Source: an uncultured Clostridia bacterium
GTDB taxonomy: Bacteria; Bacillota; Clostridia; TANB77; CAG-508
DNA: 64,000 nucleotides
Assembly (NCBI GenBank): GCA_944387525.1
Contig: CALXFF010000002.1
Span: forward strand, 8,954 to 72,953
Direction: 5' to 3'
Shown here: positions 22,155 through 58,048 of the stretch, piece after piece
Position numbering within the stretch: the stretch's first letter is position 1
Layout of the letters: each line of letters starts with the position of its first letter
The notes under the pieces: generated by a model
What the model saw: the letters and a program-made list of their open reading frames with translations, nothing else
Database searches by the model: none
What the model was told of the DNA's origin: nothing
Program-made: the position numbers and the translations under genes

Positions 22155-22306
22155 GTGGTCACTTTGGGGACAGGTTCGGACTGACCATTTTTGGTTAGTT
22201 TAGGGACGCCACTTTATTAAAACGACTTTTATCCATTATTTAATTTTTGAGGTCCGTCCCTAAATCCCTGATTTTAGGGATTTTTAGGACCGTCCCCTAG
22301 TTCCCT
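22155..22306. repeat. GGGAC-family intergenic repeat, modules 1+2 (between hydB and hydA)
   Basis: Module 1 is tggtcactttggggacaggttcggactgaccatttttggttagtttagggacgccac. Module 2 is aggtccgtccctaaatccctgattttagggatttttaggaccgtcccctagttccct, a nested palindrome. The hydB stop codon lies inside module 2. Confidence 0.8.
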
Positions 22307-24177
22307 ATTGCATGGAATGGGCAACTTGCTATACATGTACCACACTTGATACATTTTTCTTGATTTATTATTCTTTTATCTCTTCCTGCTCCATCAATAG
22401 CATTTACTGGGCAATGTTTTTGACATAAGCCACAACCTTTACATTTTTCTTGGTCAATTGTTATTTTTGCCATTGCTTTACATTCTAATGTTTTACATTC
22501 TTTTTGAATAGCATGTTGTCTAAATTCTTCTCTAAAGTATTTTAATGTACTTACTACTGGGTTTGGTGCACTTTGACCAAGACCACATAAACTTGCTTTT
22601 TGGATATTTGCTGCCAATTTCTCTAATCTATATATGTCAAATTCTTCTCCTTCACCATTACATAATCTTTCAAGAATTTCTAACATTCTTTTTGTTCCTA
22701 TTCTACATGGTGTACACTTACCACAACTTTCACTTACTGTAAATTCTAAATAGAACTTAGCTAAACATACCATACATTTAGTGTCATCCATAACAATTAG
22801 TCCACCTGAACCCATCATAGAACCAATTGCTTTTAAGGATTCATAATCTATTGGTGTATCTAAATGTTCTTTTGGTATACACCCTCCTGATGGTCCTCCT
22901 GTTTGTGCAGCTTTAAAGTCTCTTCCATTTGGTATTCCTCCACCTATGTCATATACAATTTCTCTTAATGTTGTTCCCATTGGTACTTCTACAAGTCCTA
23001 TATTATTTACATTTCCACCTAATGCAAATACTTTTGTACCTTTTGAATTTGCAGTTCCTATTGATGAATACCAATCAGCACCTTTTAATATTATTTGTGC
23101 TATATTTGCATATGTTTCAACATTGTTTATTAATGTTGGTTTTCCCCATAAACCTGCTACTGCTGGATATGGTGGTTTAACTCTTGGTTGACCTCTTCTT
23201 CCTTCAATAGATTCAAGTAGTGCTGTTTCTTCTCCACATACAAACGCTCCTGCACCTAATCTTATTTCTATATCAAAATTAAAGTTTTTGCCAAAAATAT
23301 TTTTACCTAAAATCCCATAATCTCTTGCTTGGTCTATTGCTATTTGTAATCTTTGAACTGCAATTGGATATTCTGCTCTTACATAAATATATCCTTTATC
23401 TGCACCTATTGCATATGCTGCAATTGCCATAGCTTCTAAAACACTATGTGGATCACCTTCAAGAATACTTCTATCCATAAAAGCTCCCGGGTCACCTTCA
23501 TCAGCATTAGAAACAACATATTTTTGCTTTCCTTCTGAGGCCCTTGTTAGCTCCCACTTCTTACCTGTTGGGAAACCTGCTCCACCTCTACCTCTAAGTC
23601 CAGAATTTTTTATTGTTTCTATTACTTCTTCTGGTGTCATATCACTTAATACTTTCTCTAATGCTAAATATCCATCAAAAGCTATGTATTCATCTATATT
23701 TTCAGGATTTATTACACCACAATTCTTCAATGCAATTCTTTTTTGCTTTTTATAAAAATTCAAATCATCTAATCTATCAACCATCGTGCCATCTATATCT
23801 CTACACAAAAGCCTTTCAACTTTTCCACCCTTTACAATATGTGTATCAATAATCTCTTCGCAATCTTCTGGTGTAACCATTGCATAAAATGTATCTTCTG
23901 GACGTATTATTACAATTGGACCTTTTGCACATAAACCAAAACATCCTGTTTGTATAACACGTACATTATCTATACCTTTTTCTTCTAAAATTTCTCTAAA
24001 TCTTCTTAATATTTCAGGTGATTTAGATGATGTACAACCAGTTCCATGGCAGACTAATATATGTTTTTCTCTAGTATCTGCTTTAGTATTTACTCTTAAA
24101 TCTAATTCTTTTCTTTTTTCTTCTCTTATTTTGTGTATTTCCTTTAAAGATTTCATACTTTCCTCCTTTTGTCGCAT
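22297..24177 (-). CDS. hydB: NADH-binding flavoprotein subunit of bifurcating hydrogenase (NuoF-like, HydB)
   Basis: NuoF-type FMN/NADH and 4Fe-4S motifs, N-terminal thioredoxin-like 2Fe-2S, C-terminal 2x[4Fe-4S] ferredoxin. The true start is probably the second ATG (MKSLKEI, ~24156), which has RBS AAAGGAGGAAAGT. The first ATG lies inside the repeat element. Confidence 0.9.
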   Translation of the reverse strand: MRQKEESMKSLKEIHKIREEKRKELDLRVNTKADTREKHILVCHGTGCTSSKSPEILRRFREILEEKGIDNVRVIQTGCFGLCAKGPIVIIRPEDTFYAMVTPEDCEEIIDTHIVKGGKVERLLCRDIDGTMVDRLDDLNFYKKQKRIALKNCGVINPENIDEYIAFDGYLALEKVLSDMTPEEVIETIKNSGLRGRGGAGFPTGKKWELTRASEGKQKYVVSNADEGDPGAFMDRSILEGDPHSVLEAMAIAAYAIGADKGYIYVRAEYPIAVQRLQIAIDQARDYGILGKNIFGKNFNFDIEIRLGAGAFVCGEETALLESIEGRRGQPRVKPPYPAVAGLWGKPTLINNVETYANIAQIILKGADWYSSIGTANSKGTKVFALGGNVNNIGLVEVPMGTTLREIVYDIGGGIPNGRDFKAAQTGGPSGGCIPKEHLDTPIDYESLKAIGSMMGSGGLIVMDDTKCMVCLAKFYLEFTVSESCGKCTPCRIGTKRMLEILERLCNGEGEEFDIYRLEKLAANIQKASLCGLGQSAPNPVVSTLKYFREEFRQHAIQKECKTLECKAMAKITIDQEKCKGCGLCQKHCPVNAIDGAGRDKRIINQEKCIKCGTCIASCPFHAIGN

Positions 24178-24258
24178 TGGGGACGTTTCTCATGCGACAT
24201 TTTGTCCTTTTGGGGACGTTTCCGTTTGGACATTTTTGTCCATTCTGGGACACATCTA
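24171..24258. repeat. GGGAC-family repeat, module 4-like (gtcgcattggggacgtttctcatgcgac plus GTCC/GGAC mini-hairpins), between hydC and hydB
   Basis: Shares the gtcgcaNtggggacgtttctcatgcgacat arm with the 60898-60968 palindrome. Confidence 0.7.
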
Positions 24259-24300
24259 TTAACTTTTTATTTTTATGCTCTTCTCCTAGTTGGAAAAGAA

Positions 24301-24780
24301 TTATTCTTTCATTAATTTATCAAGAACCTCATCCAACTTCTTAACAGTAGCTTTTCCATACACTTCGCCATTAACAGTAAAAACCGGAGCTAAACCACAT
24401 GCACCAACACATCTAGTTTGATCAATTGAAAATTTACCGTCTTTTGTTGTTTCTCCTGGTTGAATGCATAATCTTTCAGTTAATCTATCCATAATTTTTT
24501 GAGAACCTTTAACAAAGCATGCTGTTCCTAAACATACTGATATACTATATTTTCCTTTTGGTTTTAGTGTAAATCTAGAATAAAAAGTAACTACTCCATA
24601 AATTTCTGCCATTGGAATTGATAAAAATTCTGATAAAACTTTTTGGGCTTCTTGTGGGATATATCCATAATGTTCTTGCACTTCATTTAACATTTGAATT
24701 AAATTATCTTTTTCTGGTTTGTATATATCACATAATTCTTTTAAAAATTTATCTTCTTCTTGCATATTTATTCCTCCCAT
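24301..24780 (-). CDS. hydC: NuoE-like 2Fe-2S thioredoxin-fold subunit of bifurcating hydrogenase (HydC)
   Basis: 159 aa, NuoE family cysteine pattern (CLGTAC...CVGAC). Confidence 0.85.
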   Translation of the reverse strand: MGGINMQEEDKFLKELCDIYKPEKDNLIQMLNEVQEHYGYIPQEAQKVLSEFLSIPMAEIYGVVTFYSRFTLKPKGKYSISVCLGTACFVKGSQKIMDRLTERLCIQPGETTKDGKFSIDQTRCVGACGLAPVFTVNGEVYGKATVKKLDEVLDKLMKE

Positions 24781-24902
24781 GATTAATATATATTAAATTG
24801 TTGTTTCAATTATATCAAATAGAATTTTTTTATACAACCGATTTTTTACAATTTTTGATTTTTTTCGTTAAATATTGTTACCGAATTAAGTTCTATAACT
24901 GC

Positions 24903-24946
24903 AAGAATAAATAAAACAGCTCCCTCAATATACTAAGTGCTGTTTT
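24903..24946 (-). terminator. Rho-independent terminator after pyrD (AAAACAGC...GCTGTTTT + T-run)
   Basis: Read directly on the minus strand. Confidence 0.6.
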
Positions 24947-24962
24947 ATATTCACTATTTTTT

Positions 24963-25871: not shown

Positions 25872-26423
25872 CTATTTTATTCCCTCCATTCCTTTTTGTT
25901 TTATTAATTTGACTTTATCATCTATATTAATATCAGAAATTTCCTCGATAAAATCTAATAATTTTTCTAATTTTATATATCTTGGCTCTCCTTCTTTGAC
26001 ATTCACATATTTATCAGTATATTTACTTAAAGTAACATTATATCTCTCAAGTATCTCTTTAAATAAATAATCATAATCCTCTCTAAGATTTCCTTTTGTC
26101 CTCTTCATTTCTTCAAATTCTTCATTAAAATGATTATTATAAAATTGATAATCTGTATATAAATGCAAAAAATACCCTTTCCAATAATCTTGATTTATAT
26201 CTACATTTTCGTCTTCTAGAAATTTATCAATATTAGTTTCAACATTACCATTTGACCATCTTCCGTAGTGTGAAGAATCTTTAAATTTTCTCTTATTTGT
26301 CATTTCTTCGTCCAAATCAGGTGCTACAGAGCCTTTTACAAATTCTTTAACATCCTTTATCTCGTCCGGATGCTTTTGGATATATCTATCCGCAATTATT
26401 TCATGTATTGCAACATGTGCCAT
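25872..26423 (-). CDS. Hypothetical protein inserted between pyrK and pyrD (possible zinc-dependent phospholipase C / P1-nuclease-like fold)
   Basis: 183 aa. The stop abuts the pyrD ATG (translational coupling). His-containing motifs AHVAIHE and HLYTDYQ. This gene is not normally part of pyr operons. Confidence 0.4.
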   Translation of the reverse strand: MAHVAIHEIIADRYIQKHPDEIKDVKEFVKGSVAPDLDEEMTNKRKFKDSSHYGRWSNGNVETNIDKFLEDENVDINQDYWKGYFLHLYTDYQFYNNHFNEEFEEMKRTKGNLREDYDYLFKEILERYNVTLSKYTDKYVNVKEGEPRYIKLEKLLDFIEEISDINIDDKVKLIKQKGMEGIK

Positions 26424-26449
26424 CTCTTTCTACTCCTATCTTTAATTAA

Positions 26450-27241: not shown

Positions 27242-27249
27242 TTTTATTA

Positions 27250-27395
27250 TCCTCCTTTTCTATGGTCAGTTTGGGGACAGGTTCGGACTGACCATTTTTG
27301 GTCACTTTAGGGACGCCACTTCTATTTTACTCAAAGGTCCGTCCCCTAATCCCTAAAAGCAGGGATTTTTAGGACCGTCCCCTAAATCCCTCCTA
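27250..27395. repeat. GGGAC-family repeat, modules 1+2 (between pyrF and pyrK)
   Basis: ctatggtcagtttggggacaggttcggactgaccatttttggtcactttagggacgccac ... aggtccgtcccctaatccctaaaagcagggatttttaggaccgtcccctaaatccct. The last 4 codons and stop of pyrF (GGI*) are encoded by the element end. Confidence 0.8.
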
Positions 27396-28299
27396 ACTCC
27401 TCTTTCATTCTTAATGCTTCTGCTCTTGTTGCTTTTGCATAATCCTTTTCTGCAAACTTATCTTTCCAAAGTTCTGATTTATATGCACACATCAAACTTC
27501 TTGATGCATTCACTATTCCTCCTAAGCCATTTTTGTCAAACCCTAATGCTATATCTTCAGCTTTACCACCTTGTGCTCCATATCCTGGTATTAAGAAATA
27601 TGTATGAGGTGCAATTTCTCTTATTTCTTTTAATTGTTTTGGGTATGTTGCTCCTACTACAGCTGCTATGCTACTATATCCATTTTCACCTCTTAAGTCT
27701 TTTCCCCATTCTTCAACTAATTTTGCGACTTTTACATATACTTCTTCTCCATTTTCTAATTTTACATCTTGTAATTCACCTGATGATGGATTTGATGTTT
27801 TTACTAATATAAATATTCCTTTGCCATATTTTTTACAATCCTCAATAAATGGTTTGACACAATCTGTTCCCATATATGGATTTACTGTTACAAAATCCAC
27901 ATCAAAAATACTTTCTTCCTTTTCTCCTATTTTAGTCTTACCTAAATATGCATTCGAATATCCTTGAGCAGTTGAACCAATATCTCCTCTTTTTATATCA
28001 GCTATTACAATCATTCCTTTTTGTTTTGCATATTTACATGTTTCTTCAAATGCTTTCATTCCTGGTATACCAAACATTTCATAAAAAGCTATCTGTGGCT
28101 TTACAGCTGGAATTACATCATATGTTTCATCTATCAAAGCCTTGTTATATTCTACAATTGCTTGTGATACACCTTCCAAAGTGTTTGGATATTTTTCTAA
28201 TAAACATTTTGGCAATAATTCGTATCTCGGGTCTAAACCTATTACTGTTGGATTATTTGTTTCTTTTATTTTATTTATTAATCTATCAATTGCATTCAC
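27382..28299 (-). CDS. pyrF: Orotidine 5'-phosphate decarboxylase (type 2, long form); GTG start
   Basis: 305 aa type-2 OMPdecase. RBS GAAGGAGGAAAT upstream of GTG. Confidence 0.85.
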   Translation of the reverse strand: MNAIDRLINKIKETNNPTVIGLDPRYELLPKCLLEKYPNTLEGVSQAIVEYNKALIDETYDVIPAVKPQIAFYEMFGIPGMKAFEETCKYAKQKGMIVIADIKRGDIGSTAQGYSNAYLGKTKIGEKEESIFDVDFVTVNPYMGTDCVKPFIEDCKKYGKGIFILVKTSNPSSGELQDVKLENGEEVYVKVAKLVEEWGKDLRGENGYSSIAAVVGATYPKQLKEIREIAPHTYFLIPGYGAQGGKAEDIALGFDKNGLGGIVNASRSLMCAYKSELWKDKFAEKDYAKATRAEALRMKEELGGI

Positions 28300-28321: not shown

Positions 28322-28378
28322 CATGGGGGACAGGTCAAATCGTTTCATTTTGAAACGTTTTGGCACGTCCCTAATAGA
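28322..28378. repeat. GGGAC-family repeat, module 3 (catgggggacaggtcaaatcgtttcattttgaaacgttttggcacgtccctaatag)
   Basis: Overlaps the 3' end of the ArsC-family ORF. The same module occurs at 57998-58048. Confidence 0.75.
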
Positions 28379-28737
28379 CTCACCCATTCTTTTTCTTTAA
28401 AACCTACTAATATTACTTTATCAGTTATAACAAGTGGTCTTTTTACTAACATTCCATCTGTGGACAATATCTCTATTTTTTCTTCATCCGTCATATTTGG
28501 CAATTTTTCTTTTAAATTTAATTCTTTATATTTCATTCCGCTTGTATTAAAGAATTTTTTGATATCATATCCGCTTTGCTTTATCCATTTTCTTAATTCA
28601 TCCTTTTGGGGATTATTTTCTACTATATGTCTGTCGTCAAATTCAATATTATTTTGTTCTAACCATTTTTTTGCTTTTTGACAAGTAGAACATTTTGGAT
28701 ATTCAATAAATAATACTTTCATAATTTCTCCTCTCAA
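28345..28737 (-). CDS. ArsC/Spx-family protein (CxxC thioredoxin-like fold)
   Basis: KCSTCQKA motif near the N-terminus. It sits between pyrC and pyrF. The C-terminal ...LLGTCQNVSK is partly encoded by the repeat. Confidence 0.65.
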   Translation of the reverse strand: MRGEIMKVLFIEYPKCSTCQKAKKWLEQNNIEFDDRHIVENNPQKDELRKWIKQSGYDIKKFFNTSGMKYKELNLKEKLPNMTDEEKIEILSTDGMLVKRPLVITDKVILVGFKEKEWVSLLGTCQNVSK

Positions 28738-28768: not shown

Positions 28769-28824
28769 CTAAATAGGTCTGTCCCTTTTGCGTAATTTTT
28801 AAGCATTTTAGCATGTCCCTAAAT
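28769..28824. repeat. GGGAC-family repeat, module 5 (aggtctgtcccttttg ... tagcatgtccctaaat)
   Basis: Same arrangement as the 4341-4452 element. The pyrC C-terminus (LGTC*) is encoded by gcatgtccctaa. Confidence 0.7.
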
Positions 28825-30091
28825 AAGCAACTTTTCCATTTACAATTGTATATTTTACTTTACCTTTTAATTTTTTTCCTATAAATGGGCTGTTTTTAGA
28901 TTTTGATACTATCATTTCTTTTGTGTAAACATATTCTTCATTTGAATCAAATATAGTGATATCCGCCTTTTTTCCTATCTCTATACTACCTCTTTCGTTG
29001 TCTATATGTAATAATTTTGATGGAGTATATGAAGTTAATCTTACTAAGTTTAAGTAGTCAATATGTCCTGGGTCTACTAAGTTCATTATTTCTGCTGGGA
29101 GTGCTGTTTCAAACCCTATTATCCCATTTGGCGCTTTTGATAATTCTACATCTTTTTCTTCTTCTGCATGTGGTGCATGGTCTGTTATTATACAATCTAT
29201 TGTTCCTTCTTTTAGTCCTTCTATTATTGCTTGTCTATCTTTTTCTTCTCTTAATGGTGGATTCATTTTTGCATTTGTTCCAGATTTTAATACTTCGTCT
29301 ACTGTAAATGTAAAATAGTGTGGACATGTTTCGCATGTTATTTTTACACCTCTTTTTTTAGCATCTCTTATCATGTTTTTACTTGTTTTTGTACTTATAT
29401 GACATATGTGTCCTCTAACATTATTTGTTTCTGATATAACTATTTCTCTTGCAGCCATTATTTCTTCTGCTTCTGGTAATACTCCTTGAACTCCTAATTC
29501 TTCTGCTACTTTTCCTGCATTTATTGCACCAGCAGAAACAGATTTTTCTTCACAATGTGATGCTACAAATGTTCCGAGTTTATCTGCTTCAATCATTGCT
29601 TGTCTCATCATTCTGCTATTTACAACTGGCATACCATCATCTGAAAATGCAATTGCTCCTGCATTTCTTAATTCTTCAAAATTTACTAATTCTTCTCCTT
29701 TTTCTCCTTTAGATACAGAAGCATATGGAAGTATATTGCATAAATTTACTCTTCTTGCTTCTTCTATTATTTTTTGCAAATTAATAGCGCTATCTGGTGT
29801 TGGTTTTGTATTTGGCATTGGACAAATAGTTGTAAAACCTCCTGCAACAGCGCTTTTGCTGCCTGTTTCAATTGTTTCTTTATATTCAAAACCGGGTTCT
29901 CTTAAATGGCAATGAATATCAATCATTCCAGGCATAATATATAGTTTTGAACAGTCAATTATTTTATCTGCTTTTTCTTCTATATTTTTTCCTATTTCTT
30001 TGATTTTGTCATCTTCAATTAGTATGTCTTTTTCTTCAAATGTGTTTGTCTTATAATCAATTAGTGTTCCGCCTTTTAATAATGTTTTCAT
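28808..30091 (-). CDS. pyrC: Dihydroorotase
   Basis: DIHCHLREPG metal-binding motif. 427 aa. Confidence 0.9.
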   Translation of the reverse strand: MKTLLKGGTLIDYKTNTFEEKDILIEDDKIKEIGKNIEEKADKIIDCSKLYIMPGMIDIHCHLREPGFEYKETIETGSKSAVAGGFTTICPMPNTKPTPDSAINLQKIIEEARRVNLCNILPYASVSKGEKGEELVNFEELRNAGAIAFSDDGMPVVNSRMMRQAMIEADKLGTFVASHCEEKSVSAGAINAGKVAEELGVQGVLPEAEEIMAAREIVISETNNVRGHICHISTKTSKNMIRDAKKRGVKITCETCPHYFTFTVDEVLKSGTNAKMNPPLREEKDRQAIIEGLKEGTIDCIITDHAPHAEEEKDVELSKAPNGIIGFETALPAEIMNLVDPGHIDYLNLVRLTSYTPSKLLHIDNERGSIEIGKKADITIFDSNEEYVYTKEMIVSKSKNSPFIGKKLKGKVKYTIVNGKVAYLGTC

Positions 30092-30247: not shown

Positions 30248-31564
30248 ATGAAAAATTTTTTTATTGTATTAATAATGAAACTTTTAAATATTGCATTAAA
30301 GATAGCAGGTAAACAAGGTGGTAACTTTCTTGGTAAGATAGCATTTGATTGGAATCCTGAAATATTCAAATATTTTAAAATAGATTGTCCAATTATTGCT
30401 GTTACTGCAACAAATGGGAAAACTATGACAAATAATGCTATCGGATATGTTTTTGAAACAGCAGGAAAAAAAGTTATCAGCAACAAAGAAGGAAACAATA
30501 TGGAGACTGGAATTTTATCTACTCTTCTAAAGCATTGTTCTTTAACTGGTAAAATTAAAGCTGATTACTTAGTTTTTGAAGTTGATGAAGGTTATGTACC
30601 TGTTGTATTTAAAGATTTAAAATTAGATACATTAGTTGTTTTAGATTTTTTCCGTGATCAATTAGATAGAAACGGTGAAGTTGAAACATTAATTTTAAAG
30701 ATAAATGAATTTCTTAAAACTTATACTTGTAATTTAGTATTAAATAGTGATGACCCTAATGTTTCAAGACTTGGAAGAGCAAACCCTGATAATGAAAATG
30801 TATATTATTTTAGTGTTGAACCATATAAATATGCAACAAAAGAGATGAAAGAAGCTGGAGAAGGAAAATTTTGCCCATTCTGCAATACTCGTCTCGAATA
30901 TGAATATTATCAGTATTCTCACATAGGAAAATTCGAATGTCCTAATTGTCATTATGGCGATAATGAAATTTACAAACTTGCTCAAAATGTTGACTTAAAA
31001 AATAGAAGTTTTGAAGTTGATGGAATTACATATAAAACTAAATTTAATAGTATTTATAACATATACAATTTTATTGCTGTAATTTCATGTGTTAGCTTAT
31101 ATAACATTGATACAAAAATTGTACAAAAAGCTTTATCGGAATTTGTTTTGAATAATGGTCGTTTAGAAGAAATTGATATAAATGGTATTCCAACTATTAT
31201 TAATTTAGCAAAAAATCCTACTGGAAGTAACGTTAGTTTAAGAATTTTAAATGAAGATGATGATGAAAAAGAATTGCTTTTTGTTTTGAATGATAACTTA
31301 GCTGACGGTCATGATGTTTCTTGGATTTGGGATATTGACTTTTCAAATTTAAATAATGTATCTAGAGTTATAACTTCTGGAACTAGAGCTTATGACATGG
31401 CAATTAGAATTAAAACTTCTGGATTTGATGCAGATAAAATAGAGCCTTACCTAGATTTACATGAAGCAGTTAAAAATTTATATAAAACAAATGTTAAAAA
31501 ATATGTTATTGCAAATTATACTTCTTTGCAACCAACAAGAACTGAAATTTTGAAGTTGAAATGA
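30248..31564 (+). CDS. murT: Lipid II isoglutaminyl synthase subunit MurT (Mur-ligase domain + DUF1727 with Cys4 zinc ribbon)
   Basis: Mur ligase P-loop TATNGKTMT and CPFCNTRL...CPNCHYG. The probable start is ATG 30248 (RBS GAGGAA). The track ORF begins at an upstream TTG. Confidence 0.8.
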   Translation: MKNFFIVLIMKLLNIALKIAGKQGGNFLGKIAFDWNPEIFKYFKIDCPIIAVTATNGKTMTNNAIGYVFETAGKKVISNKEGNNMETGILSTLLKHCSLTGKIKADYLVFEVDEGYVPVVFKDLKLDTLVVLDFFRDQLDRNGEVETLILKINEFLKTYTCNLVLNSDDPNVSRLGRANPDNENVYYFSVEPYKYATKEMKEAGEGKFCPFCNTRLEYEYYQYSHIGKFECPNCHYGDNEIYKLAQNVDLKNRSFEVDGITYKTKFNSIYNIYNFIAVISCVSLYNIDTKIVQKALSEFVLNNGRLEEIDINGIPTIINLAKNPTGSNVSLRILNEDDDEKELLFVLNDNLADGHDVSWIWDIDFSNLNNVSRVITSGTRAYDMAIRIKTSGFDADKIEPYLDLHEAVKNLYKTNVKKYVIANYTSLQPTRTEILKLK

Positions 31565-31592
31565 TGATTTTGGGACGGAGAAAAAATCATCC
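31561..31592 (+). terminator. Hairpin GATGATTTT-gggacggagaa-AAAATCATC after murT (GGGACGG motif in the loop)
   Basis: 9-bp stem read directly. The T-run is weak. Confidence 0.35.
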
Positions 31593-32478: not shown

Positions 32479-32498
32479 TGTTTTATTCCCGTTACTAA

Positions 32499-32556
32499 GT
32501 GCCGTCCCTAAACTGACCAAAAATGGTCACTCCGAACCTGTCCCCAAACTGACCAT
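32499..32556. repeat. GGGAC-family repeat, module 1 (reverse orientation), abutting the nrdD stop
   Basis: gtgccgtccctaaactgaccaaaaatggtcactccgaacctgtccccaaactgaccat. The nrdD TGA overlaps the element end. Confidence 0.8.
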
Positions 32557-34682
32557 CACAAGTGCATTACACGTTGTTTAATTTCTTTTGTCTTTCCTAC
32601 GTTCCAGAAGTTTTCTCCTAAATATCCACATGTTCTTCTAACTACAGTCATTTTACTATGGTCTTTGTTTCCACAGTTTGGACATTCCCATTCGTTATCT
32701 TTATTAATTATTATTTCTCCATCAAAACCACATTCATGGCAATAATCTGATTTTGTATTAAATTCTGCATATTGGATGTTATCATATATGAATTTAACAA
32801 CTGTTTCTAATGCTTCTAAGTTTTTGTTCATATTTGGTATTTCTATATATGATATTGAACCACCAGATGATATCTTTTGGAATTCACTTTCAAATGATAA
32901 CTTTGAAAATGCGTCAATTTTTTCTCTTACATCTACATGATATGAATTTGTATAATATCCTTTATCTGTAACATCTTTAATTGTTCCAAATTTTTCTTTG
33001 TCTATTCTTGCAAATTTGTAACATAAACTTTCTGCTGGTGTACCATATAAAGCAAATCCAATATTTGTTTCTTTTTTCCATCTATCTGTTGTTTCTCTTA
33101 AATGTTTCATAACTCTTAATGCAAATTCATGTCCTTTTTCTGTTGTATGTGATTCACCAGTCATTAGTTTTGTTACTTCATATAGTCCTATATATCCTAA
33201 AGATATTGTTGAATATCCACCATATAATAATTTGTCTATCTTTTCACCTTTTTCAAGTCTTGCTATTGCTCCATATTGCCAGTGGATTGGGCTTATATCT
33301 GAATGTGTTCCAAGTAATGCATAATGTCTACACATTAATGCTTCTTTACAAAGTTCAAGTCTTTCATCAAATATCTTCCAGAATTTTTCTTCATCACCTT
33401 TTGCTATAATTCCTATTTGTGGTAAATTGATACTTACTACACCTTGATTAAATCTTCCTTCAAATTTGTAGTTTCCGTTTTCATCTTTCCAAGGTGATAA
33501 GAAACTTCTACATCCCATTGGACTGAATACGTTTCCTTCATAATTTTCACGCATTTTTTTAGCTGATATGTAATCTGGATACATTCTTTTTGCTGAACAT
33601 TTAACTGCAAGTCTTGTTAAATAATCATATTCTCCACCTTGTAAATTGTTAAATTCGTCTAAAACATAAACTAATTTTGGAAATGCTGGTGTTACATACA
33701 CTCCTGCTTCATTTTTTATTCCTTCATATCTTTGTCTTAATACTTCTTCAATAATCATTGCATTTTCTTTGATATATGGATCATCTTTTTCTAGGTGTAG
33801 GAATAATGTCACAAATGGGGCTTGTCCATTAGTTGTCATTAATGTGTTTATTTGATATTGGATAGTTTGTACTCCTGATTTTAGTTCTGCTTTTAATCTG
33901 TCTTGAACCATATCTTCTATTATTTTGTCTTTTATCTTTCCTTTATATTTGCTCTCAAGTTCTTTTTTATACTTGTTATAACTTTTTCTTAAATATTTTC
34001 CTAAGTGAATTAAATCTACTGATTGTCCTCCGTATTGATTACTTGCAACTGTTGCTATTATTTGTGTTGTAACAATACATGCAACTTGAAAACTTTTTGG
34101 GCTTTCAATCATTTTTCCATTCATTACTGTTCCATTATCAAGCATATCTGCTATATTAATTAAACAACAATTAAATATTGGCTGTACAAAATAATCAGCA
34201 TCATGGAAATGTAAAATTCCGTCTGCATCTGCTTTTACTATTTTTTCTGGTAATAATAGTCTTTTTGTTAAGTCTCTTGATACTTCACCTGCTATGTAAT
34301 CTCTTTGTGTTGATGCAAGTAATGTATTTTTGTTGGAATTTTCTTCTGCTAATTCTTTATTATCATTTCTTATCAATCCTAATATTGATTCATCTGTAGT
34401 GTTAGCTTTTCTGACTAATGCTCTTGTATATCTATATACAATATATTTTTTAGCTAGTTCGTATTTATCTAATTCCATTAATTTTTCTTCGATAATGTCT
34501 TGAATATCTTCAACTAGCATTCTTTTTTTACCTAAGTCTTCTATATATAAAATAATTCCTTTTATATCTTCTTTAGTTGCTCTTTCTTTAGGTTTTACCT
34601 CTTGATTTGCTTTTTCAATTGCTACTTTAATTTTTGCTCTGTCATAGTCTACAGCTCTTCCATCTCTCTTGATAATTTTCAT
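32556..34682 (-). CDS. nrdD: Anaerobic ribonucleoside-triphosphate reductase (class III)
   Basis: C-terminal glycyl-radical motif RTCGYLG and zinc ribbon CHECG...CPNCG. 708 aa. Confidence 0.9.
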   Translation of the reverse strand: MKIIKRDGRAVDYDRAKIKVAIEKANQEVKPKERATKEDIKGIILYIEDLGKKRMLVEDIQDIIEEKLMELDKYELAKKYIVYRYTRALVRKANTTDESILGLIRNDNKELAEENSNKNTLLASTQRDYIAGEVSRDLTKRLLLPEKIVKADADGILHFHDADYFVQPIFNCCLINIADMLDNGTVMNGKMIESPKSFQVACIVTTQIIATVASNQYGGQSVDLIHLGKYLRKSYNKYKKELESKYKGKIKDKIIEDMVQDRLKAELKSGVQTIQYQINTLMTTNGQAPFVTLFLHLEKDDPYIKENAMIIEEVLRQRYEGIKNEAGVYVTPAFPKLVYVLDEFNNLQGGEYDYLTRLAVKCSAKRMYPDYISAKKMRENYEGNVFSPMGCRSFLSPWKDENGNYKFEGRFNQGVVSINLPQIGIIAKGDEEKFWKIFDERLELCKEALMCRHYALLGTHSDISPIHWQYGAIARLEKGEKIDKLLYGGYSTISLGYIGLYEVTKLMTGESHTTEKGHEFALRVMKHLRETTDRWKKETNIGFALYGTPAESLCYKFARIDKEKFGTIKDVTDKGYYTNSYHVDVREKIDAFSKLSFESEFQKISSGGSISYIEIPNMNKNLEALETVVKFIYDNIQYAEFNTKSDYCHECGFDGEIIINKDNEWECPNCGNKDHSKMTVVRRTCGYLGENFWNVGKTKEIKQRVMHL

Positions 34683-35564: not shown

Positions 35565-36182
35565 TTATCCATACATTCTTCCTTGCTCTTCTTGTAATTT
35601 TGCTATTTGATAGGCAAGTTCTTTGTGTTCTCTATTATTTTGTAATATTACTCTATCAAATTTTTCATTCATTTCTTTTCTCATCATTGTTTGCTCATTT
35701 AATATTTTTGCTATATTTATGTTTATGGTGTCATCTAATCTTTTGTCAATTCTTTGTGTTGTTTCTTCTAAATTTCCTACTCTTGTATCTAGAACTTTTA
35801 CATCTCTTGTTAAGATATTTACTTTTTTGTTTAAGTTTTTAAATTGTTTTTTTAATCCACTTACTTCTGTGTTTAGCGTATTTACTTGTGTCTTTAGTCC
35901 ACTTACTTCTGTATTTAATGTCTTTACTTGTGTCTTTAGTCCACTCACTTCTGTATTTAACGTATTTACTTGTGTCTTTAGTCCACTTACTTCTGTATTT
36001 AACGTATTTACTTGTGTCTTTAGTCCACTTACTTCTGTATTTAACGTATTTACTTGTGTTTTTAGCCCTCCTACTTCTTTAGTTAGAGTACCAACTTGTG
36101 TTTCTAAGCCATCAAGCCTTTCATTTTGCTTACTAAATTCTCCTTGTATATTTTGCCATAATTCACTAATGTCCATATTCAA
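35565..36182 (-). CDS. Coiled-coil hypothetical protein built from 14-aa tandem repeats (LKTQVNTLNTEVSG x5)
   Basis: The underlying 42-nt DNA tandem repeats lie at ~35855-36110. Confidence 0.6.
   Translation of the reverse strand: MNMDISELWQNIQGEFSKQNERLDGLETQVGTLTKEVGGLKTQVNTLNTEVSGLKTQVNTLNTEVSGLKTQVNTLNTEVSGLKTQVKTLNTEVSGLKTQVNTLNTEVSGLKKQFKNLNKKVNILTRDVKVLDTRVGNLEETTQRIDKRLDDTININIAKILNEQTMMRKEMNEKFDRVILQNNREHKELAYQIAKLQEEQGRMYG
35855..36110. repeat. 42-nt in-frame tandem repeat x ~5-6 (gtctttagtccacttacttctgtatttaacgtatttacttgt)
   Basis: Near-identical units, read directly. Entirely inside the CDS. Confidence 0.85.
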
Positions 36183-36382
36183 TCTTCCTCCTTTCTAAAT
36201 TTATTTGCATAAGATTGACTATGGACATATAATATCATTATAAAATAGAACTTTCAAATTAATTTTTTCTTGTTAGTGTCATATCAGCTATCAAAACCTA
36301 TCATTATCTTTTAAAAGCTCATTTAATCAAACTTTTTCATAAAATTTTACTTTTTAGTTTTTTGTTGTTTAATTTGTAATAA

Positions 36383-36442
36383 GTGGCGTCCCTAAAGTGA
36401 CCAAAAATGGTCAGTCCAAACCTGTCCCCAAACTAACCAAAC
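36383..36442. repeat. GGGAC-family repeat, module 1 (reverse orientation) just downstream of the argS stop
   Basis: gtggcgtccctaaagtgaccaaaaatggtcagtccaaacctgtccccaaactaaccaa. Confidence 0.8.
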
Positions 36443-48728: not shown

Positions 48729-48790
48729 TCAAGGTCCGTCCCTAAGTCCCTGTTTTCAGGGATTTAGAGGACCGTCCCCTTAATCCCTCT
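48729..48790. repeat. GGGAC-family repeat, module 2 (aggtccgtccctaagtccctgttttcagggatttagaggaccgtccccttaatccctc) abutting the infB stop
   Basis: Nested palindrome, read directly. Confidence 0.8.
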
Positions 48791-51755
48791 ATCTTTTTAT
48801 TTCTTCCATGATATAAACTTCTATAATGTCTCCTTCTTTAATGTCATTGTAGTTTTCTATTTGAATACCACATTCGAATCCTTTTGTTACTTCTTTTACA
48901 TCATCTTTGAATCTTCTTAATGTTGCTAAGTGTCCATCATGTATTACTACATTATCACGTATTACTCTTACTCCAGCATTTCTTTCTACTTTACCATTTA
49001 ATACATATGCTCCTGCAATAGTTCCTACATTTGATATTTTGAATGTTTGTCTTACTTCTGCATTTCCTATTACTTTTTCTTCGTATTTTGGATCTAACAT
49101 TCCTTTCATTGCTGATTCTACATCTTCTATTGCTTGGTAAATAATTGAATATTGTTTTATTTCTACTTCTTCTTTTTCTGCCATTTCTTTTGCCATATTA
49201 TCTGGTCTTACATTAAATGCTATTATTATTGCATTTGATACTTTTGCAAGTGTAACGTCTGATTGGTTTACTCCTCCAACTGCTGCGTGTATTACTTTTA
49301 CTTTTACTTCTTCATTTTCTAATTTTTCTAGTGATTGTTTTACTGCTTCAACAGATCCTTGTACATCTGCTTTTACAATTAGGTTTAATACTTTTAGTTC
49401 TCCTTCTTCCATTTTGCTGAACAAGTTATCTAATGTTACTTTTGAAGCGCTATTTATTGCTTTTTCTCTTGCTTGACGTTTTCTTCTTTCAATTAGATGT
49501 TTTGCCATTTTTTCGTTTTTAACTTCATAGAATGTATCTCCTGCTTCTGGTACTTCTGTTAATCCCATTATTTCTACTGGTGTTGATGGTCCAGCAGATT
49601 TTACACTTCTACCTTTGTCATCTTTCATTGCTCTTATTCTTCCTATTGAAGAACCTACAACTATTGTATCTCCTACATCTAATGTTCCTCTTTGTACCAA
49701 CATAGTTGCAATTGCACCTTTTGATTTGTCAAGTCTTGCTTCTATGACTGCTCCTTTTGCTTGTTTATTTGGGTTAGCTTTTAATTCTAATACATCTGCT
49801 TCTAATAATACCATTTCTAATAATTGGTCTATATTTGTATGTTGTTTTGCAGAAATCGGTACAAATATTGTATCTCCGCCCCATTCTTCTGGAACTAAGT
49901 CATATGCCATTAATTCTTGTTTTACTTTTTCTACGTTGGCATCTGGTAAGTCTATTTTGTTTATTGCAACAATTATTGGAATTCCAGCTGATTTTGCATG
50001 GTTTATAGCTTCAATTGTTTGTGGTTTTACTCCATCATTTGCAGCAACAACTAATATTGCAATATCAGTTATTTGAGCACCTCTTGCTCTCATTGCAGTA
50101 AATGCTTCATGTCCTGGTGTGTCTAAGAATGTTATTAATCTATCATTTACTTTTACTTGATATGCACCTATTGCTTGTGTAATTCCTCCAGCTTCACCTT
50201 CAATTACATTTGTTTTTCTAACAGCATCTAAAAGTGAAGTTTTTCCATGGTCTACGTGTCCCATAACAACTATTACTGGTGGTCTTGATTTTAAATCTTC
50301 TTCTTTATCTTCTGAGTCGTCAAATAAGATGTCTTCTTCTGTTACAACTTCTTTTTTCTTTGCAGTAATTCCAAATTCTCCTGCTACTAAGAATGCTGTA
50401 TCAAAGTCAACTTCTTGATTTATTGTTGCCATTATTCCATAACCTAATAGCTTTTTAATTACTTCTGCTGTTGTTTTTTTCATTTCAGCAGCTAAATCTT
50501 TAACTGTAATTGTTTCTGGGATTTCAATTTCTGTTAATTGGAAGATTTTTTGTTTGTTACGTGGTTCTTGATTTTTATTATTTTTCTTCTTTCCACGTCT
50601 TCCTCGTTCTGTTGTTAGGTCATAATAGTCTAGCATACCACCGTCTTGGTCATCAAACATATTAGATAGTCTATTTGTTTGTTTAAGGCTTTTTAATTTA
50701 CCTTCATCAAAGTCATTGTGTGAGTTGTTTCTTCTATTTTTATTTTTCTTTGTATTTTTGTTTTCTTCAAATCTATTATTATTTTTTTGTTTGTCAATTG
50801 ATTTGTTATATTCTCTAGTTGGCTCTTTTTCTATAGTTTCAGTTGCCATTATATTTTTAATATTTTTCTCAATCCCTTTTTCATCTAATGGTCTTCTTCC
50901 AAATCTCTCTCCATTATTATTTCTATTTTTATTAAATTTATTATTATTTCTATTGAAGTTATTATTATTTTGATTGTTATTTTGGCCTCTATTTCTATTG
51001 TTGTTATTTCTAAAATTATTTCTACCATTGCGGTCATCTTGATTTCTAGTGTCATTGTTTCTTGCTTTTGCAATATTTACATTATTATGGTCTTTAGCTA
51101 CTTTTTCACCTGAAGAAACATTTGTTGATGTCTCTGTTTTTTCAATTTTTACTTCTTGAGATGCTTTTTGGTCTACTTCTTCTTTAATTTTTGTTTCTTG
51201 TTTTACATCTTCTTTTATTTCTTCTTTTTCTTCTTTTTTAGGTTCTTCTTTTTTTAGACCAAACAATTCACTTACAGTCATAGGTTTACTTGGCTTATTA
51301 CGATAAACTATATTATAATCCTTGTTTTGTTTTCTCTCAACAAATCCTATATTATTTCTATTATTCTGTTTTTTATTTTCTTCTTTTTTTGTTTCTGGCT
51401 CTTCATTAATTATAACTTCTCTTCTTATTATAACTGGAGCTTTTTCTTCTTTCTTTGACTCTTTTTTTGTTTTTTCTGATTTTTCAGATTTCTTTTTTTC
51501 TTGTTTTTCTGAGTCTTTTTTAGTAGTTTCCTTTTTCTCATCAGACTTTTTGTCTTCTTGCTTTTTATCTTCTTTTTTAGTTGCTCCATTTTTAGATATT
51601 TCTTTTTCTATTTTATCTGCTTCGTCTTGTTCTACTCCACTTAAATGACTTTTTGCTTCAATATTTAATTTTTTAGCTACTTCTAATACTTCTTTACTTG
51701 TTAATCCTAATTTTTTTGCTATTTCGTGTATTTTTATCTTACCCAATAGCTTCAC
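48789..51755 (-). CDS. infB: Translation initiation factor IF-2 (GTG start; Asn/Lys-rich low-complexity N-terminal region)
   Basis: GTPase motifs [14 protein letters not shown] and DTPGHEAF. 988 aa. Confidence 0.95.
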
Positions 51756-52059: not shown

Positions 52060-52309
52060 GCATTACACCTCTTAATCTTTCATAGATTTCATCTGGTATT
52101 TTCTGTTCAAATACTTTTTCAATTCTCTTTGTTTTAATTGCTTTTTCAAGACAAGTTATACTATCACAAATATATGCGCCTCGTCCTTCTAATTTACCAG
52201 TTTTGTCTATATTTATTTCATTTTGTTTATTTTTTACAATTCTTATTAAATTCTTTTTGTCCTTTTTTTCATTACATCCCATACATGTTCTTTGAGGTTG
52301 TTTTTTCAT
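52049..52309 (-). CDS. ylxR: YlxR-family RNA-binding protein (DUF448)
   Basis: CMGCNEKKDKKNLIRIV motif. 86 aa. Confidence 0.75.
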   Translation of the reverse strand: MKKQPQRTCMGCNEKKDKKNLIRIVKNKQNEINIDKTGKLEGRGAYICDSITCLEKAIKTKRIEKVFEQKIPDEIYERLRGVMLEK

Positions 52310-52344
52310 TTTGTACCCTCCTTTATTTTTATGTATAGACTTTA

Positions 52345-53499: not shown

Positions 53500-53596
53500 T
53501 TTCCTACCATTCCTTTCTTCTTTACTAAATTTATTTTAGTTACAATTATATTTTCTTAATTTATTAGGATATTATATTAAATAATTGTAACAATAT

Positions 53597-54046: not shown

Positions 54047-54206
54047 TGTGTTCTCCTTTCTTTGTTTTGGTTTTAAACTGACTGAAGAGTGGGATTTGTT
54101 CCCACTCTTCTAGTCTCTTCATGTTCTTTAATATTATACCCAATTTTTGGCATAAATGCAAGTATTTTTGAAAATTTGTTTAATATTTTCGTAAATATTT
54201 ATCTTT

Positions 54207-55475: not shown

Positions 55476-55637
55476 TTTCTACCTCTCTTTTATTTTTTCG
55501 TTTATTTAATATTATTATGCTACCTTTTCTATTATACTATTATTGTTAAAATTTTGCAATAATTTTGCGTGATTTTTCTTAATTTTTGCGTGATTTTTTT
55601 AAGTTTTTCTTTTTGTTATGTATTAAATTTTTTAAAA

Positions 55638-56381
55638 TTACCCTTTTTTGGCCTTTATACCATATAAAATTCTCTTTAAATGTATTCCTCTATCACTTTT
55701 ATATTTTTCTACATATATATTAAATTTTTCATAGTCTTTTTCCATCTTTCCAAAGTCAGGAATAATTGGCGTATTGTTTAGTAAAAACAATAAATCTTCT
55801 TCTGTTTCATAATATTCATCTTGCACAATATCATAAAATTTGATATCTTTAGCTTTACTTTTAATTAAGTCCGATTTATCTTGCTCTCTTTGTTTTATTG
55901 TTTTTTCAAATCCTTGTCCTCTACCAAATATTTTTTTCAATTCTATGCAATCATCTTCATCTACTTGTTCTGAAATAAGTATTCCACCACTTTTTAATAC
56001 TCTAAAAACTTCATTTGAGTTAAATGGTGTATGTCTAGCGCATACCATATCAAAAAAGTTATTTGGAAATTTAATTTCATTGGAATCCATTTCAAAAAAC
56101 ATAGCATCTTTTCTTTCTTTTGAATTTTCTTTTGCTCTATTAATCATTTCTCTTGAAAAATCCGTTCCAATTATTAATTTAGCATTCTTTATATTATTTA
56201 AAATTTTTTCTCCTCCACCGGTTCCTATGTCTAATATTATTTTTCCTTCGCTTTCTTTATTTATCTCATCAAAATATTGAAAAGCACTATTATCGACCAT
56301 TTTACATTTTATATTAGAAAAATCCCAACCTATTGTTTTTCCTATTTTGTTATAAAATTCTTTTTCTTCATTTTTTCCCAT
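55638..56381 (-). CDS. Class I SAM-dependent methyltransferase
   Basis: ILDIGTGGGE motif I. Confidence 0.7.
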   Translation of the reverse strand: MGKNEEKEFYNKIGKTIGWDFSNIKCKMVDNSAFQYFDEINKESEGKIILDIGTGGGEKILNNIKNAKLIIGTDFSREMINRAKENSKERKDAMFFEMDSNEIKFPNNFFDMVCARHTPFNSNEVFRVLKSGGILISEQVDEDDCIELKKIFGRGQGFEKTIKQREQDKSDLIKSKAKDIKFYDIVQDEYYETEEDLLFLLNNTPIIPDFGKMEKDYEKFNIYVEKYKSDRGIHLKRILYGIKAKKG

Positions 56382-56384
56382 ATT

Positions 56385-57278
56385 TTAAAACTCCCACTTT
56401 GGCACATATTCTTCTTCATGTTCGCCTAATTCTTGTATAAATCCATTTTCTATTCCTAGTTTTTCAACATAATCTTCAATCTCTTTCCATTCTTCTTTTG
56501 TTAATTTTCTATTTAATTCTTCTACTTCTTTTGCTTTATATGTTGGAAAATATTGAGCCATTATGCTAACATATGTATAATCTTCCATATTTTCTTTTAT
56601 CCATTGTAAAACCTTTTTACTATTTTCAATATTATTAGGTAATACTAAATGCCTTATAATCATGCCTTTTTTCATTATTCCATTTTCATCAAATACTGGT
56701 TTGCCAACTTGTCTTTGCATTTCTTTTAGAGCTTTTGTTATTATTTCAAAATAATTATCTATTTTAGAATATTTTTTTGCTATATCATCAAAATAATATT
56801 TAAAATCTGGCAAATAAATATCTACATATCCTTCTAACATTTTTAAAGTTTCTACTTTTTCATATCCATTTGTATTATAAACAATTGGAATATTAAGTCC
56901 ATTTTGCTTTGCAATCTTAATTGCTTCAATAATTTGTGGTACATAACTTGTAGGTGTTACTAAGTTTATATTTTCTACATCTTTTTCCTGTTGTTTTATA
57001 AAAATTTCTGCTAAATCTCCAATAGATATTTCTTTTCCTTTTCCTAATTGACTAATTTCATAGTTTTGGCAAAAAATACAGTTTAAATTACAATTAGAAA
57101 AAAAGACCGTTCCAGAGCCTTTTTCTCCACTAATACATGGTTCTTCAAAATTATGGGTTGAATATAATGCTATTTTTATTGTGTCTTTTGATTTGCATCT
57201 ACCTATTTGATTTTCATTTCTATTTATATTACATTCGTGTGGACATATTTTACACTTCGTTAGATACTTTTTGTACAT
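56385..57278 (-). CDS. Radical SAM protein (PflX-like; CxxxCxxC = CNLNCIFC, plus an N-terminal CPHEC...C cluster)
   Basis: Motifs read directly. 297 aa. Confidence 0.65.
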   Translation of the reverse strand: MYKKYLTKCKICPHECNINRNENQIGRCKSKDTIKIALYSTHNFEEPCISGEKGSGTVFFSNCNLNCIFCQNYEISQLGKGKEISIGDLAEIFIKQQEKDVENINLVTPTSYVPQIIEAIKIAKQNGLNIPIVYNTNGYEKVETLKMLEGYVDIYLPDFKYYFDDIAKKYSKIDNYFEIITKALKEMQRQVGKPVFDENGIMKKGMIIRHLVLPNNIENSKKVLQWIKENMEDYTYVSIMAQYFPTYKAKEVEELNRKLTKEEWKEIEDYVEKLGIENGFIQELGEHEEEYVPKWEF

Positions 57279-57951
57279 ATATATTATCGCCCTCTTTTTT
57301 TAGTGTTACTATTTTTTTAGTGAATTTATCTAAATTATTTTTTACTATATCTTGACTACTGCTTTCTTGGTTTTCTTCTACTTTTCCTATTTCTTCATCA
57401 TTTAAATTTCTGATAATTATTTGAAAATTTTGCATTCTTGTATTTTCAGTATTTTCAATATTTTCCTGAGAGTAATCTTCTAGATATTCTACTATTTCAA
57501 CTTCATATCCAGTATCTGTTTTGTTTATCTGATTTAATAAAAAACAATCTTCCTCTTGGTCTAGTCCCATTCCTGTTGCATAATATTTATCTGTTTCTGC
57601 ATCATATGTAAAATTTTCTGTGCCTTCTCTTGGGAATTCTTTTGTGAAATCTGGACCGAATAGTTCTTTTGCTTTTTCTTGAATTTGTTCATAGCTTAAT
57701 TCATAATCTTCAAGATTCTTTTTTACCACTTCCCATGTCCACATATCGCTTGCTTCATTTATATTTTCGAATGTAGGTAATGCTTCATTAGTCACTTCTC
57801 TCCACATATATATTTTTGTTATGTATGTTTGTATTTGCTCTATTTCTTGTACACTTATTTGATTGTTTGTACTTATTGCCATATTTCTATATATTATCAT
57901 TCCAACAAATATTATTAATAAAATTACTATTGCGACAATCATTTTTCTCAT
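57250..57951 (-). CDS. Membrane-anchored hypothetical protein (N-terminal TM, acidic C-terminus)
   Basis: ORF. Overlaps the radical SAM gene start by 29 nt. Confidence 0.45.
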   Translation of the reverse strand: MRKMIVAIVILLIIFVGMIIYRNMAISTNNQISVQEIEQIQTYITKIYMWREVTNEALPTFENINEASDMWTWEVVKKNLEDYELSYEQIQEKAKELFGPDFTKEFPREGTENFTYDAETDKYYATGMGLDQEEDCFLLNQINKTDTGYEVEIVEYLEDYSQENIENTENTRMQNFQIIIRNLNDEEIGKVEENQESSSQDIVKNNLDKFTKKIVTLKKEGDNIYVQKVSNEV

Positions 57952-57997
57952 TTTCTTACATTCCTCTCATGTTTTTATCTTTCGATTGTCATTTTAT

Positions 57998-58048
57998 CAT
58001 TTCAATGGGAACGTGTCAAATGAAAGATTTGGCACGTCCCTAACAGCT
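57998..58048. repeat. GGGAC-family repeat, module 3 (aatgggaacgtgtcaaatgaaagatttggcacgtccctaacag) overlapping the HK stop codon
   Basis: Same module as 28322-28378. The HK TAG lies in cctaa. Confidence 0.75.

Follow-up and report, generated by a model that had tools for sequence, protein, structure and literature searches.

GGGAC-loop hairpins, probably mobile REP-type elements, overlap the stop codons of genes in an uncultured gut Clostridia bacterium

We analyzed short repeat elements that overlap the 3' ends of genes in a 64,000-nucleotide stretch of DNA from an uncultured Clostridia bacterium (GenBank assembly GCA_944387525.1, contig CALXFF010000002.1, positions 8,954 to 72,953), hereafter the window. 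The window has a G+C content of 29%, and nearly all of its genes, including all of the named genes that adjoin a repeat, lie on the minus strand. Searches of NCBIfam and Pfam confirmed the identities of prfB, hydA/B/C, pyrD/E/K/F, the Spx/ArsC-family gene (spx below), pyrC, murT/gatD, nrdD, argS, infB, a histidine kinase and its response regulator, and clpX. The repeat families, every one of which carries GTCCC or GGGAC, were recovered independently of an original prediction, made from the sequence alone, in which repeats supply stop codons and terminal residues to the flanking genes. Each overlap between a repeat and a gene end listed in that prediction was seen directly in the sequence where it had been placed. 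The M1 family (~60 nt) starts at positions 22156, 27262, 32497, and 36381, the M2 family (57 nt) at 22250, 27335, and 48732, and the M3 family at 28325 and 58010; the M5 family is found at 28772 and as an inverted doublet at 4341-4453, and the D8 hairpin family at 24170-24262 and 60893-60970. The sequence GTCCCTAA occurs 10 times in the window compared to 0.77 occurrences expected.

Alignment of the units on GGGAC yielded, as a position weight matrix, the conserved motif TTRGGGACRGNYC (at position +5, A 0.42 and G 0.43), which is located in the loop of a hairpin. The loops of 11-17 nt contain the motif and are conserved, whereas the stems of 6-11 bp are wholly different in sequence between families (TGTCGCAT, AGGGATT, TGGTCAG, GATGATTTT, and others). 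GGGAC is enclosed by a perfect stem of 6 bp or more in 119 of 238 intergenic units, compared to 34 in shuffled controls, and 7 hairpins in the window fit a strict descriptor, compared to 0.43 ± 0.60 in shuffles. Units are arranged singly, as same-strand pairs 33-36 nt apart in which a second hairpin sits between both motifs (M1, M2, M5), or as head-to-head inverted doublets (M3, D8, and the element at prfB), the last of which occur in the window at 4341-4453, 28325-28385, and 60893-60970. Stable folds were obtained for M2, M3, D8, and the doublets, and constant stop triplets lie at the outer ends of the elements. M1 can fold into a hairpin of 13-14 bp with U5 behind it only in its sense orientation (-15 to -18 kcal/mol, versus -7.6 kcal/mol antisense); it has this orientation after nrdD and argS and the unstructured one within the hyd and pyr operons. 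A G+C-rich hairpin that leads directly into a U-tract, the mark of an intrinsic terminator, was present in sense M1 (nrdD, argS), in the M5 doublet, and in some D8 copies, and was absent from M2 and M3, which have no U-tracts, and from the operon-internal copies.

The original prediction held that the elements rewrite short C-terminal tails and proposed comparing the C-termini of orthologs from species that lack the repeats. A PyrC scan gave 80 loci, all from metagenome-assembled genomes of uncultured Clostridia from animal or human guts (PyrC identity 70-98%), including L001, a relative 98% identical to the window. Together with family profiles, the repeat-free orthologs bear out rewriting for pyrC, spx, and the histidine kinase, reduce it to a trivial change in pyrF, and contradict it for hydB, nrdD, and prfB. 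C-termini are written below up to the last residue before the stop.

The pyrC gene (28808-30091) ends TTA GGG ACA TGC TAA, 15 nt inside a single M5 unit pair (28772-28822, minus strand) that encodes the tail LGTC and the stop TAA (28808-28810). At the corresponding empty sites, PyrC ends ...NGKVVFEN in L001, VYQDNN in L002, and VYQDK in L003, compared to ...NGKVAYLGTC in the window; the L001 stop runs straight into the spx ribosome-binding site, where the window has an insert of ~75 nt. The spx gene (28345-28737) ends TTA TTA GGG ACG TGC CAA AAC GTT TCA AAA TGA (LLGTCQNVSK), at least 30 nt inside M3 (28325-28374). The palindromic M3 doublet (28325-28385, no strand assigned) has the form GGGAC ... 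GTCCC around a central CGTTTCA/TGAAACG hairpin, and both the spx tail VSLLGTCQNVSK and the spx stop (28345-28347) are read from it. Repeat-free Spx orthologs end in KEKEW plus 4-6 residues, and the L001 protein ends ...KEKEWVSLLGTC; in the window, a TAA>CAA change and the resulting readthrough add QNVSK. The shared LGTC of these two unrelated proteins, which the original prediction had pointed out, is one reading frame, TTA GGG AC(A/G) TGC, of the end TTAGGGAC(A/G)TGC common to M3 and M5. The TAG frame of the same end gives an immediate stop, and it is the TAG of TTAGGGAC that terminates both prfB and the histidine kinase. The conserved core of the kinase ends ...MEW, and near-identical proteins end MEW, MEWTY, MEWIY, or MEWSC. 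The element-free locus L082 has MEWTY, the stop of L081 is a TGA on the element edge, and in the window a shortened M3-like element (58010-58050, no strand assigned) supplies the tail SC from its arm as well as the stop TAG (58040-58042).

The pyrF gene (27382-28299) ends GGA GGG ATT TAG, 10 nt inside M2 (27335-27391, minus strand), the final 10 nt of which encode G, I, and the stop (27382-27384). This M2 copy and an M1 copy in the pyrF/pyrK spacer (27262-27321, plus strand, antisense to the operon) form a block of ~130 nt that is absent from L001. There, the pyrF end is GGII, and the gene extends over the ribosome-binding site and start of pyrK. The tail thus passes from GGII in L001 to GGI in the window, and GGAGG(G)AT flanks the block on both sides. 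Longer tails encoded by repeats were observed in other species: a pyrF in L030 (3493-4236) ends ...ASLSGALSGTGPKVD, a histidine kinase beside a transposase gene of the class described below in L012 (11868-12788) ends ...ATGTVLDGKF, and a kinase ortholog (protein P0052) ends ...CPIGDVSLGTFLSH.

Other gene ends overlap an element while the protein remains as it is in relatives. The hydB gene (22297-24177) ends GGG AAC TAG, 10 nt inside M2 (22250-22306, minus strand, sense to hydB), so that the final 10 nt of the element are the hydB codons for G and N and the stop TAG (22297-22299). The ...AIGN tail is the same in 8 repeat-free orthologs and is thus ancestral. In L001, the hydB stop is followed by a full M2 arm (TAG cAGGGATTAGGGGAC); the overlap in the window arises because of a 10-nt deletion relative to L001 that left the protein unchanged. 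An M1 unit pair in the hydB/hydA spacer (22156-22214) is antisense to the operon, with GGGAC on the plus strand, and is thus in the non-terminator orientation (antisense fold -7.6 kcal/mol, z 0.07). The nrdD stop TGA (32556-32558) lies 1 nt into an M1 copy (32497-32556, minus strand, sense to nrdD) with a terminator-like hairpin of ~14 bp followed by U5, and the NrdD tail ...HL is the same as that of its ortholog. The prfB stop TAG (4450-4452, minus strand) lies within the M5 inverted doublet (4341-4453, no strand assigned), which has two GGGAC units per arm, a fold of -61.7 kcal/mol, and a following T-tract. The argS stop is 11 nt from a sense M1 copy (36381-36439, minus strand) in which 13 pairs are followed by TTTTT, again terminator-like. 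Both PrfB and ArgS end exactly where their family profiles end; for PrfB, the canonical tail is judged from a profile that reaches its last column at residue 342/343. Rewriting of the C-terminus is not supported for hydB, nrdD, prfB, and argS, where the stop triplet alone is shared or abutted. As a separate observation, prfB has the canonical programmed +1 frameshift site of release factor 2, CUU UGA C, near 5473 (minus strand), with MFELEENAKILEELENKLKELGESL encoded in the upstream frame ahead of the in-frame UGA.

Three further cases were found beyond those originally listed, at infB, murT, and argS. The infB stop TAG (48789-48791) adjoins an M2 copy (48732-48788, minus strand) with no gap, and L081 has M2 at this site too. 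The murT stop TGA (31562-31564) extends 2 nt into the stem of a GATGATTTT-GGGACggagaa-AAAATCATC hairpin (31563-31591, plus strand). Among the D8 copies, an array of three hairpins (TGTCGCAT tgGGGACgtttctc ATGCGACA and variants; 24170-24262, plus strand) occupies the hydC/hydB spacer, and a perfect, REPIN-like inverted doublet (60893-60970, no strand assigned; -63.3 kcal/mol) lies 3-5 nt past the clpX stop. L001 also has a D8 hairpin at a gene-deletion junction: it lacks pyrE (compare L001 13427-13454 with window 25872-26449), and its pyrK stop is followed by the D8 hairpin and then by the last ~20 nt of pyrE (GMEGIK).

Copies are present or absent between genomes that are 94-98% identical, as seen at the pyrC/spx, pyrF/pyrK, hydC/hydB, and clpX/response regulator sites; thus the D8 array is missing from the orthologous hydC/hydB site of L001, and no D8 doublet occurs at the clpX site of L082 (95-97% identical). 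No consistent target-site duplication was found at 7 filled/empty pairs, with one 7-8 nt GGAGG(G)AT repeat at pyrF/pyrK, and an identity as MITEs (transposable elements of the miniature inverted-repeat kind), for which a duplication of fixed length would be expected, was not retained.

Metagenome contigs gave zero hits to the M1 consensus. A metagenome scan with the family ATGATTTT-R-GGGACGGAG-NNN-AAAATCAT, to which the hairpin after murT belongs, gave 80 loci with 109 copies, and in the loci with two copies the pair was always head to head (26 pairs). In L149, L152, and L161, two hairpin copies bracket an open reading frame (ORF) of 246-252 aa with an HUH motif and a YIHxNPV motif. Its product matches Pfam Y1_Tnp with 50 bits (cut-off 23) and the NCBIfam model of the REP-associated tyrosine transposase (RAYT; REP_Tyr_transpos), where REP stands for repetitive extragenic palindrome, with 78.7 bits (E 4e-22), just below the cut-off of 80; the NCBIfam IS200 model matches weakly (20 bits versus 79 for the REP-associated model). 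The pyrC-clade loci L012 and L077 also contain RAYT homologs flanked by their own GGGAC hairpins, in L012 on the upstream side only, and for each of 5 more homologs that were sampled (L168-L172), a GGGAC hairpin lies 100-150 nt upstream and its inverted copy past the stop. Hairpin-flanked RAYT genes are thus found in nine related lineages, with hairpins on both sides in the L149 group, L161, L077, and L168-L172 and on one side in L012, and more than 1,000 proteins of this family are present in gut metagenomes. The hairpins and the predicted RAYT genes of these relatives form the REPtron arrangement, which defines REP-RAYT systems (PMC6006769, PMC3733652). In two of these loci, the stop of the transposase gene itself is supplied or abutted by the downstream hairpin (L172 2185-2215, TGA followed by CCAAAAAGATACGTCCCC; L168 2173-2205, TAA followed by TTGCCAAAAAGCTCCGTCCC).

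The repeats are likely to be REP-type elements, mostly non-coding, whose spread through single-stranded DNA is most probably the work of a RAYT-class HUH/Y1 transposase with its gene elsewhere in the genome. The architecture of the elements, the tails of the orthologs, the filled and empty sites, the hairpin-flanked RAYT genes of relatives, and three small deletions described below were directly observed; what we infer is that a RAYT mobilized the window copies, and how much selection, deletion, and targeting each contributed. In this tight genome, where the stop, the next ribosome-binding site, and the start often overlap within operons, a surviving insertion would have to land on a stop or a few bases from it. 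Stop triplets lie in the outer arm and the spacer of each unit, namely the TAG in TTAGGGAC and the TGA or TAG that starts many stems, so loss of the native stop, whether on insertion or through a small deletion afterward, could be tolerated. The gene would then end at the stop of the element, as at prfB, the histidine kinase, murT, and, with the protein unchanged, hydB, or a few element-encoded codons would be read first, as in pyrC (LGTC) and spx (VSLLGTC...).

Clade-wide statistics were collected from 81 loci (1.43 Mb, 1,297 genes). Motif density is about 5-fold higher in intergenic DNA (0.93 per kb) than in coding DNA (0.19 per kb), and among spacers it is 1.93 per kb in convergent, 1.37 in tandem, and 0.62 in divergent ones. 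Inverted pairs have the order GGGAC...GTCCC in 29 cases and the reverse order in 1, and in the metagenome family the corresponding counts are 26 and 0. Of the first sense-strand GGGAC motifs, 56 of 117 lie within 14 nt of a stop, compared to 15.2 ± 3.3 under uniform placement, a null that is too generous because empty operon spacers measure only 10-30 nt. In such spacers, an insertion that spares the next ribosome-binding site must land beside the stop, so the abutment is partly forced. Genes that abut an element end in TAG (22), TAA (21), or TGA (13), compared to 282, 860, and 155 for all genes, so that TAG and TGA are each about 2-fold as frequent in abutting genes as overall.

ATGA and TCAT are constant within the ATGATTTT...AAAATCAT family. 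The constant TGA of the element is the stop of the upstream ORF in 36 of 109 copies, corresponding to 13 distinct genes; in other distinct contexts, 5 genes abut the element, 5 read through, and 9 have their stop 6-41 nt upstream. Altogether, of the 72 copies that have an upstream ORF, 47 have the stop in the element edge or no more than 4 nt away from it. Such counts raise the possibility, which we hold to be somewhat improbable, of stop-codon-directed integration, in which the transposase or microhomology joining places the ATGA or TAG end of the element onto T(A/G)A or TAG stops and the overlap follows from insertion chemistry. It would fit with the many stems whose first triplet is TGA or TAG and with the AGGGA end of the element, which coincides with an AGGGA already present in the empty pyrF/pyrK and pyrC/spx sites. 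Relatives in the IS200/IS605 group insert 3' of a fixed tetra- or pentanucleotide, which also speaks for a directed process. A preferred integration signal, the alternative given in the original prediction, may likewise apply: constant stop triplets lie at the outer ends of the elements, but target duplications are not consistent. Against directed integration, the 7 filled/empty pairs have neither a consistent target sequence nor a consistent duplication, and operon spacers offer almost no other viable site. Moreover, sister genomes have the same element 4-10 nt farther from the stop, so abutment can postdate insertion. The same gene was seen in two states, with TAA, 4 nt, and the element in L097 and with a fused gaATGA in L133, where an 8-nt deletion left the end of the protein identical. 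Together with the 10-nt deletion in the window hydB relative to L001 and a 4-nt deletion in hydB of L025 relative to L027, this makes three compaction deletions.

The orientation of the copies bears on another reading, in which the hairpins are host-selected RNA elements, that is, terminators, 3'-end stabilizers, or modulators of termination or translational coupling, and their position at the stop is functional. In tandem spacers, the first motif is GGGAC on the sense strand in 68 cases and GTCCC in 15, and next to genes on the apparent lagging strand the counts are 5 and 0, a result, on whether orientation follows replication or transcription, that is no more than suggestive given only 6 spacers, most with near-zero skew. 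The terminator-like fold of M1, formed in the sense orientation only and placed at the ends of transcription units after nrdD and argS, with the opposite orientation inside operons, agrees with such a role, and published REPs have been described as probable RNA elements (PMC3733652). Some junctions are also filled repeatedly by different hairpin families across species. Among orthologs in L001-L080, this was observed at hydC/hydB (8 of 17) and after pyrC (10 of 81), with few refills after pyrK (2 of 64) and pyrD (3 of 66), and the stop junctions of hydC (24301) and pyrC (28808) may be insertion hot spots or sites at which hairpins are selected. On the other hand, presence and absence vary between genomes that are 95-98% identical, 25 of 80 related loci have no hairpins, and M2 and M3 lack U-tracts. 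The count of G.T versus A.C mismatches in stems, which distinguishes structure at the RNA level from structure at the DNA level, was 5 versus 2, with few events, and an Rfam search of the whole window gave nothing at gathering thresholds and no family that matches the hairpins. This reading appears unlikely, slightly more so than directed integration.

Several observations weigh against the spread of passively tolerated REP-type elements by a RAYT. None of the aligned units carries the GT[AG]G foot seen in classical REPs. By tblastn, no RAYT was found in the 64-kb window or in the L001-L003, L081, and L082 loci with 10-kb flanks, so the transposase is linked to the window copies by family resemblance only. 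Passive tolerance alone does not predict the bias toward sense-strand GGGAC after genes. In distinct genes of the ATGATTTT family, the TGA frame outnumbers the read-through frames 13 to 5, compared to an expected ratio of 1:2; passive tolerance is therefore not the whole story, and the excess points to targeting or to RNA-level selection, and selection that disfavors longer tails or favors a hairpin at the stop may also play a part. Finally, the 81 loci include related species, which are non-independent samples, and their genes were called with simple ORF heuristics.

A stronger claim, that the GGGAC-loop hairpins are a distinct REP class whose RAYT recognizes the conserved loop rather than a GTAG foot and which is placed on, or selected at, stops throughout the clade, seems improbable to us. 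If true, it would mean that a mobile element routinely supplies the stop (in a third of the copies in one family) and shapes termination, 3'-end formation, and C-terminal tails. Coincidence between short AT-rich spacers and mechanically called ORF ends, with which the ancestral or canonical C-termini of hydB, nrdD, prfB, and argS would agree, is very improbable and already contradicted by the changed tails in direct filled/empty comparisons, the excess of motifs within 14 nt of stops (56 versus 15.2 ± 3.3), the shifted stop-codon usage of abutting genes, and the one element TGA that ends 13 independent genes.

Other candidates were considered and dropped. DNA uptake sequences do not fit a core that is too short and variable and a motif depleted in coding DNA, and recoding hairpins of the SECIS/PYLIS type do not fit elements that follow all three stop codons. 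The GGA-containing loops bring to mind CsrA-type binding sites, an identity that was set aside because the copies vary in presence between genomes and a transposase is associated with them. ToxI-like 36-nt arrays were rejected on the grounds that only two units occur, at many different loci, and integration at tRNA or tmRNA genes on the grounds that a tRNA/tmRNA scan of the window found none.

Two repeats of other kinds were observed in the window. The spacer between secA and the ORF at 5608-6144 (6145-6300, minus strand) contains two tandem 49-nt repeats that are 84% identical. In each, the loop of a GCCGCCCAGUCGGCG hairpin, CCAGU, is able to base-pair with an ACUGG farther downstream. The repeats are followed by a terminator-like hairpin with a U-tract and then by a 178-aa ORF without a Pfam match. 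These repeats had no Rfam hit even at E<=1 and are possibly a tandem cis-regulatory RNA. At 35737-36111, ~18 copies of a 21-nt tandem repeat, with a seven-residue periodicity, lie inside a 205-aa ORF (35565-36182) for a coiled-coil protein that resembles the outer-membrane lipoprotein Lpp.

Under the preferred reading, that of REP-type elements mobilized by a RAYT, gene ends in these gut Clostridia would be partly written by mobile hairpins. Stops and the last 2-17 residues could then differ between near-identical strains without functional meaning, as in pyrC, spx, the histidine kinase, and the L030 pyrF. The low-GC Clostridia would have a REP-RAYT system with a conserved loop and variable stems, unlike the GTAG foot, and its large and diverse sample of RAYT proteins could serve to ask how substrates are recognized and whether stops are targeted or result from selection and deletion.

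Compared with known systems, the elements most resemble the REP/REPIN-RAYT systems of Proteobacteria (E. coli, Pseudomonas). Both consist of short multicopy extragenic hairpins, with head-to-head doublets, that follow genes in tandem and convergent spacers, are polymorphic between close relatives, and flank a Y1 HUH gene in a REPtron. For E. coli, REPs that lie within 15 nt of stop codons are reported to affect termination (Liang, Rudd, and Deutscher 2015). GTAG REP termini have been reported to give a TAG stop to flanking ORFs, and C-terminal copies within genes have been discussed (PMC3733652). In contrast to the Proteobacterial REPs, the units described here have no GT[AG]G foot, carry TTRGGGACRGNYC in the loop, and have stems that vary between families within one genome; they occur in low-GC (29%) uncultured Clostridia, with a predicted RAYT of ~225-250 aa that has an extra C-terminal region. 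REPtron classes without the GT[AG]G foot are known (PMC6006769), and RAYT genes occur in Clostridia (PMC5581495).

The CGTC-tagged REPs (Di Nocera et al. 2013, PMC3733652), which include Rickettsia RPE-4/6 and Neisseria dRS3, are similar in that the complement of the present motif reads [CT]GTCCC, and their CGTC tag is often changed to TGTC (PMC3733652). They too occur predominantly as head-to-head dimers downstream of genes and have intragenic and C-terminal copies. However, their tag is at the foot of 8-9 bp stems with 4-5 nt loops and a 3-nt CCA tail, whereas here the motif is inside a loop of 11-17 nt. They were also reported to lack a dedicated transposase (PMC3733652), whereas here a transposase is flanked by the repeats, and Firmicutes are not among the phyla listed as holding CGTC REPs (PMC3733652).

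The fusion of ERIC/RU-1 repeats to the 3' ends of genes, with loss of the normal stop and addition of repeat-encoded residues (Delihas 2007, PMC2759123), is a further parallel, as point mutations that make or remove stops inside the repeat correspond to the spx TAA>CAA change. The ERIC/RU-1 elements are MITE-like units of 100-170 bp with extensions of ~35 aa, compared to units of 30-60 nt and tails of 2-17 aa in the present case. IS200/IS605 elements and their PATE-like miniatures share the transposase superfamily (Pfam Y1_Tnp), the recognition of hairpins, and the absence of a target duplication, whereas the transposase described here appears to be fixed and REP-flanked and does not appear to move with its ends. 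No description of a GGGAC-loop hairpin family was found in the literature. The donation of stops by REP ends has already been published, and the gene ends analyzed here are a well-supported instance of it, carried by an apparently undescribed REP variant.

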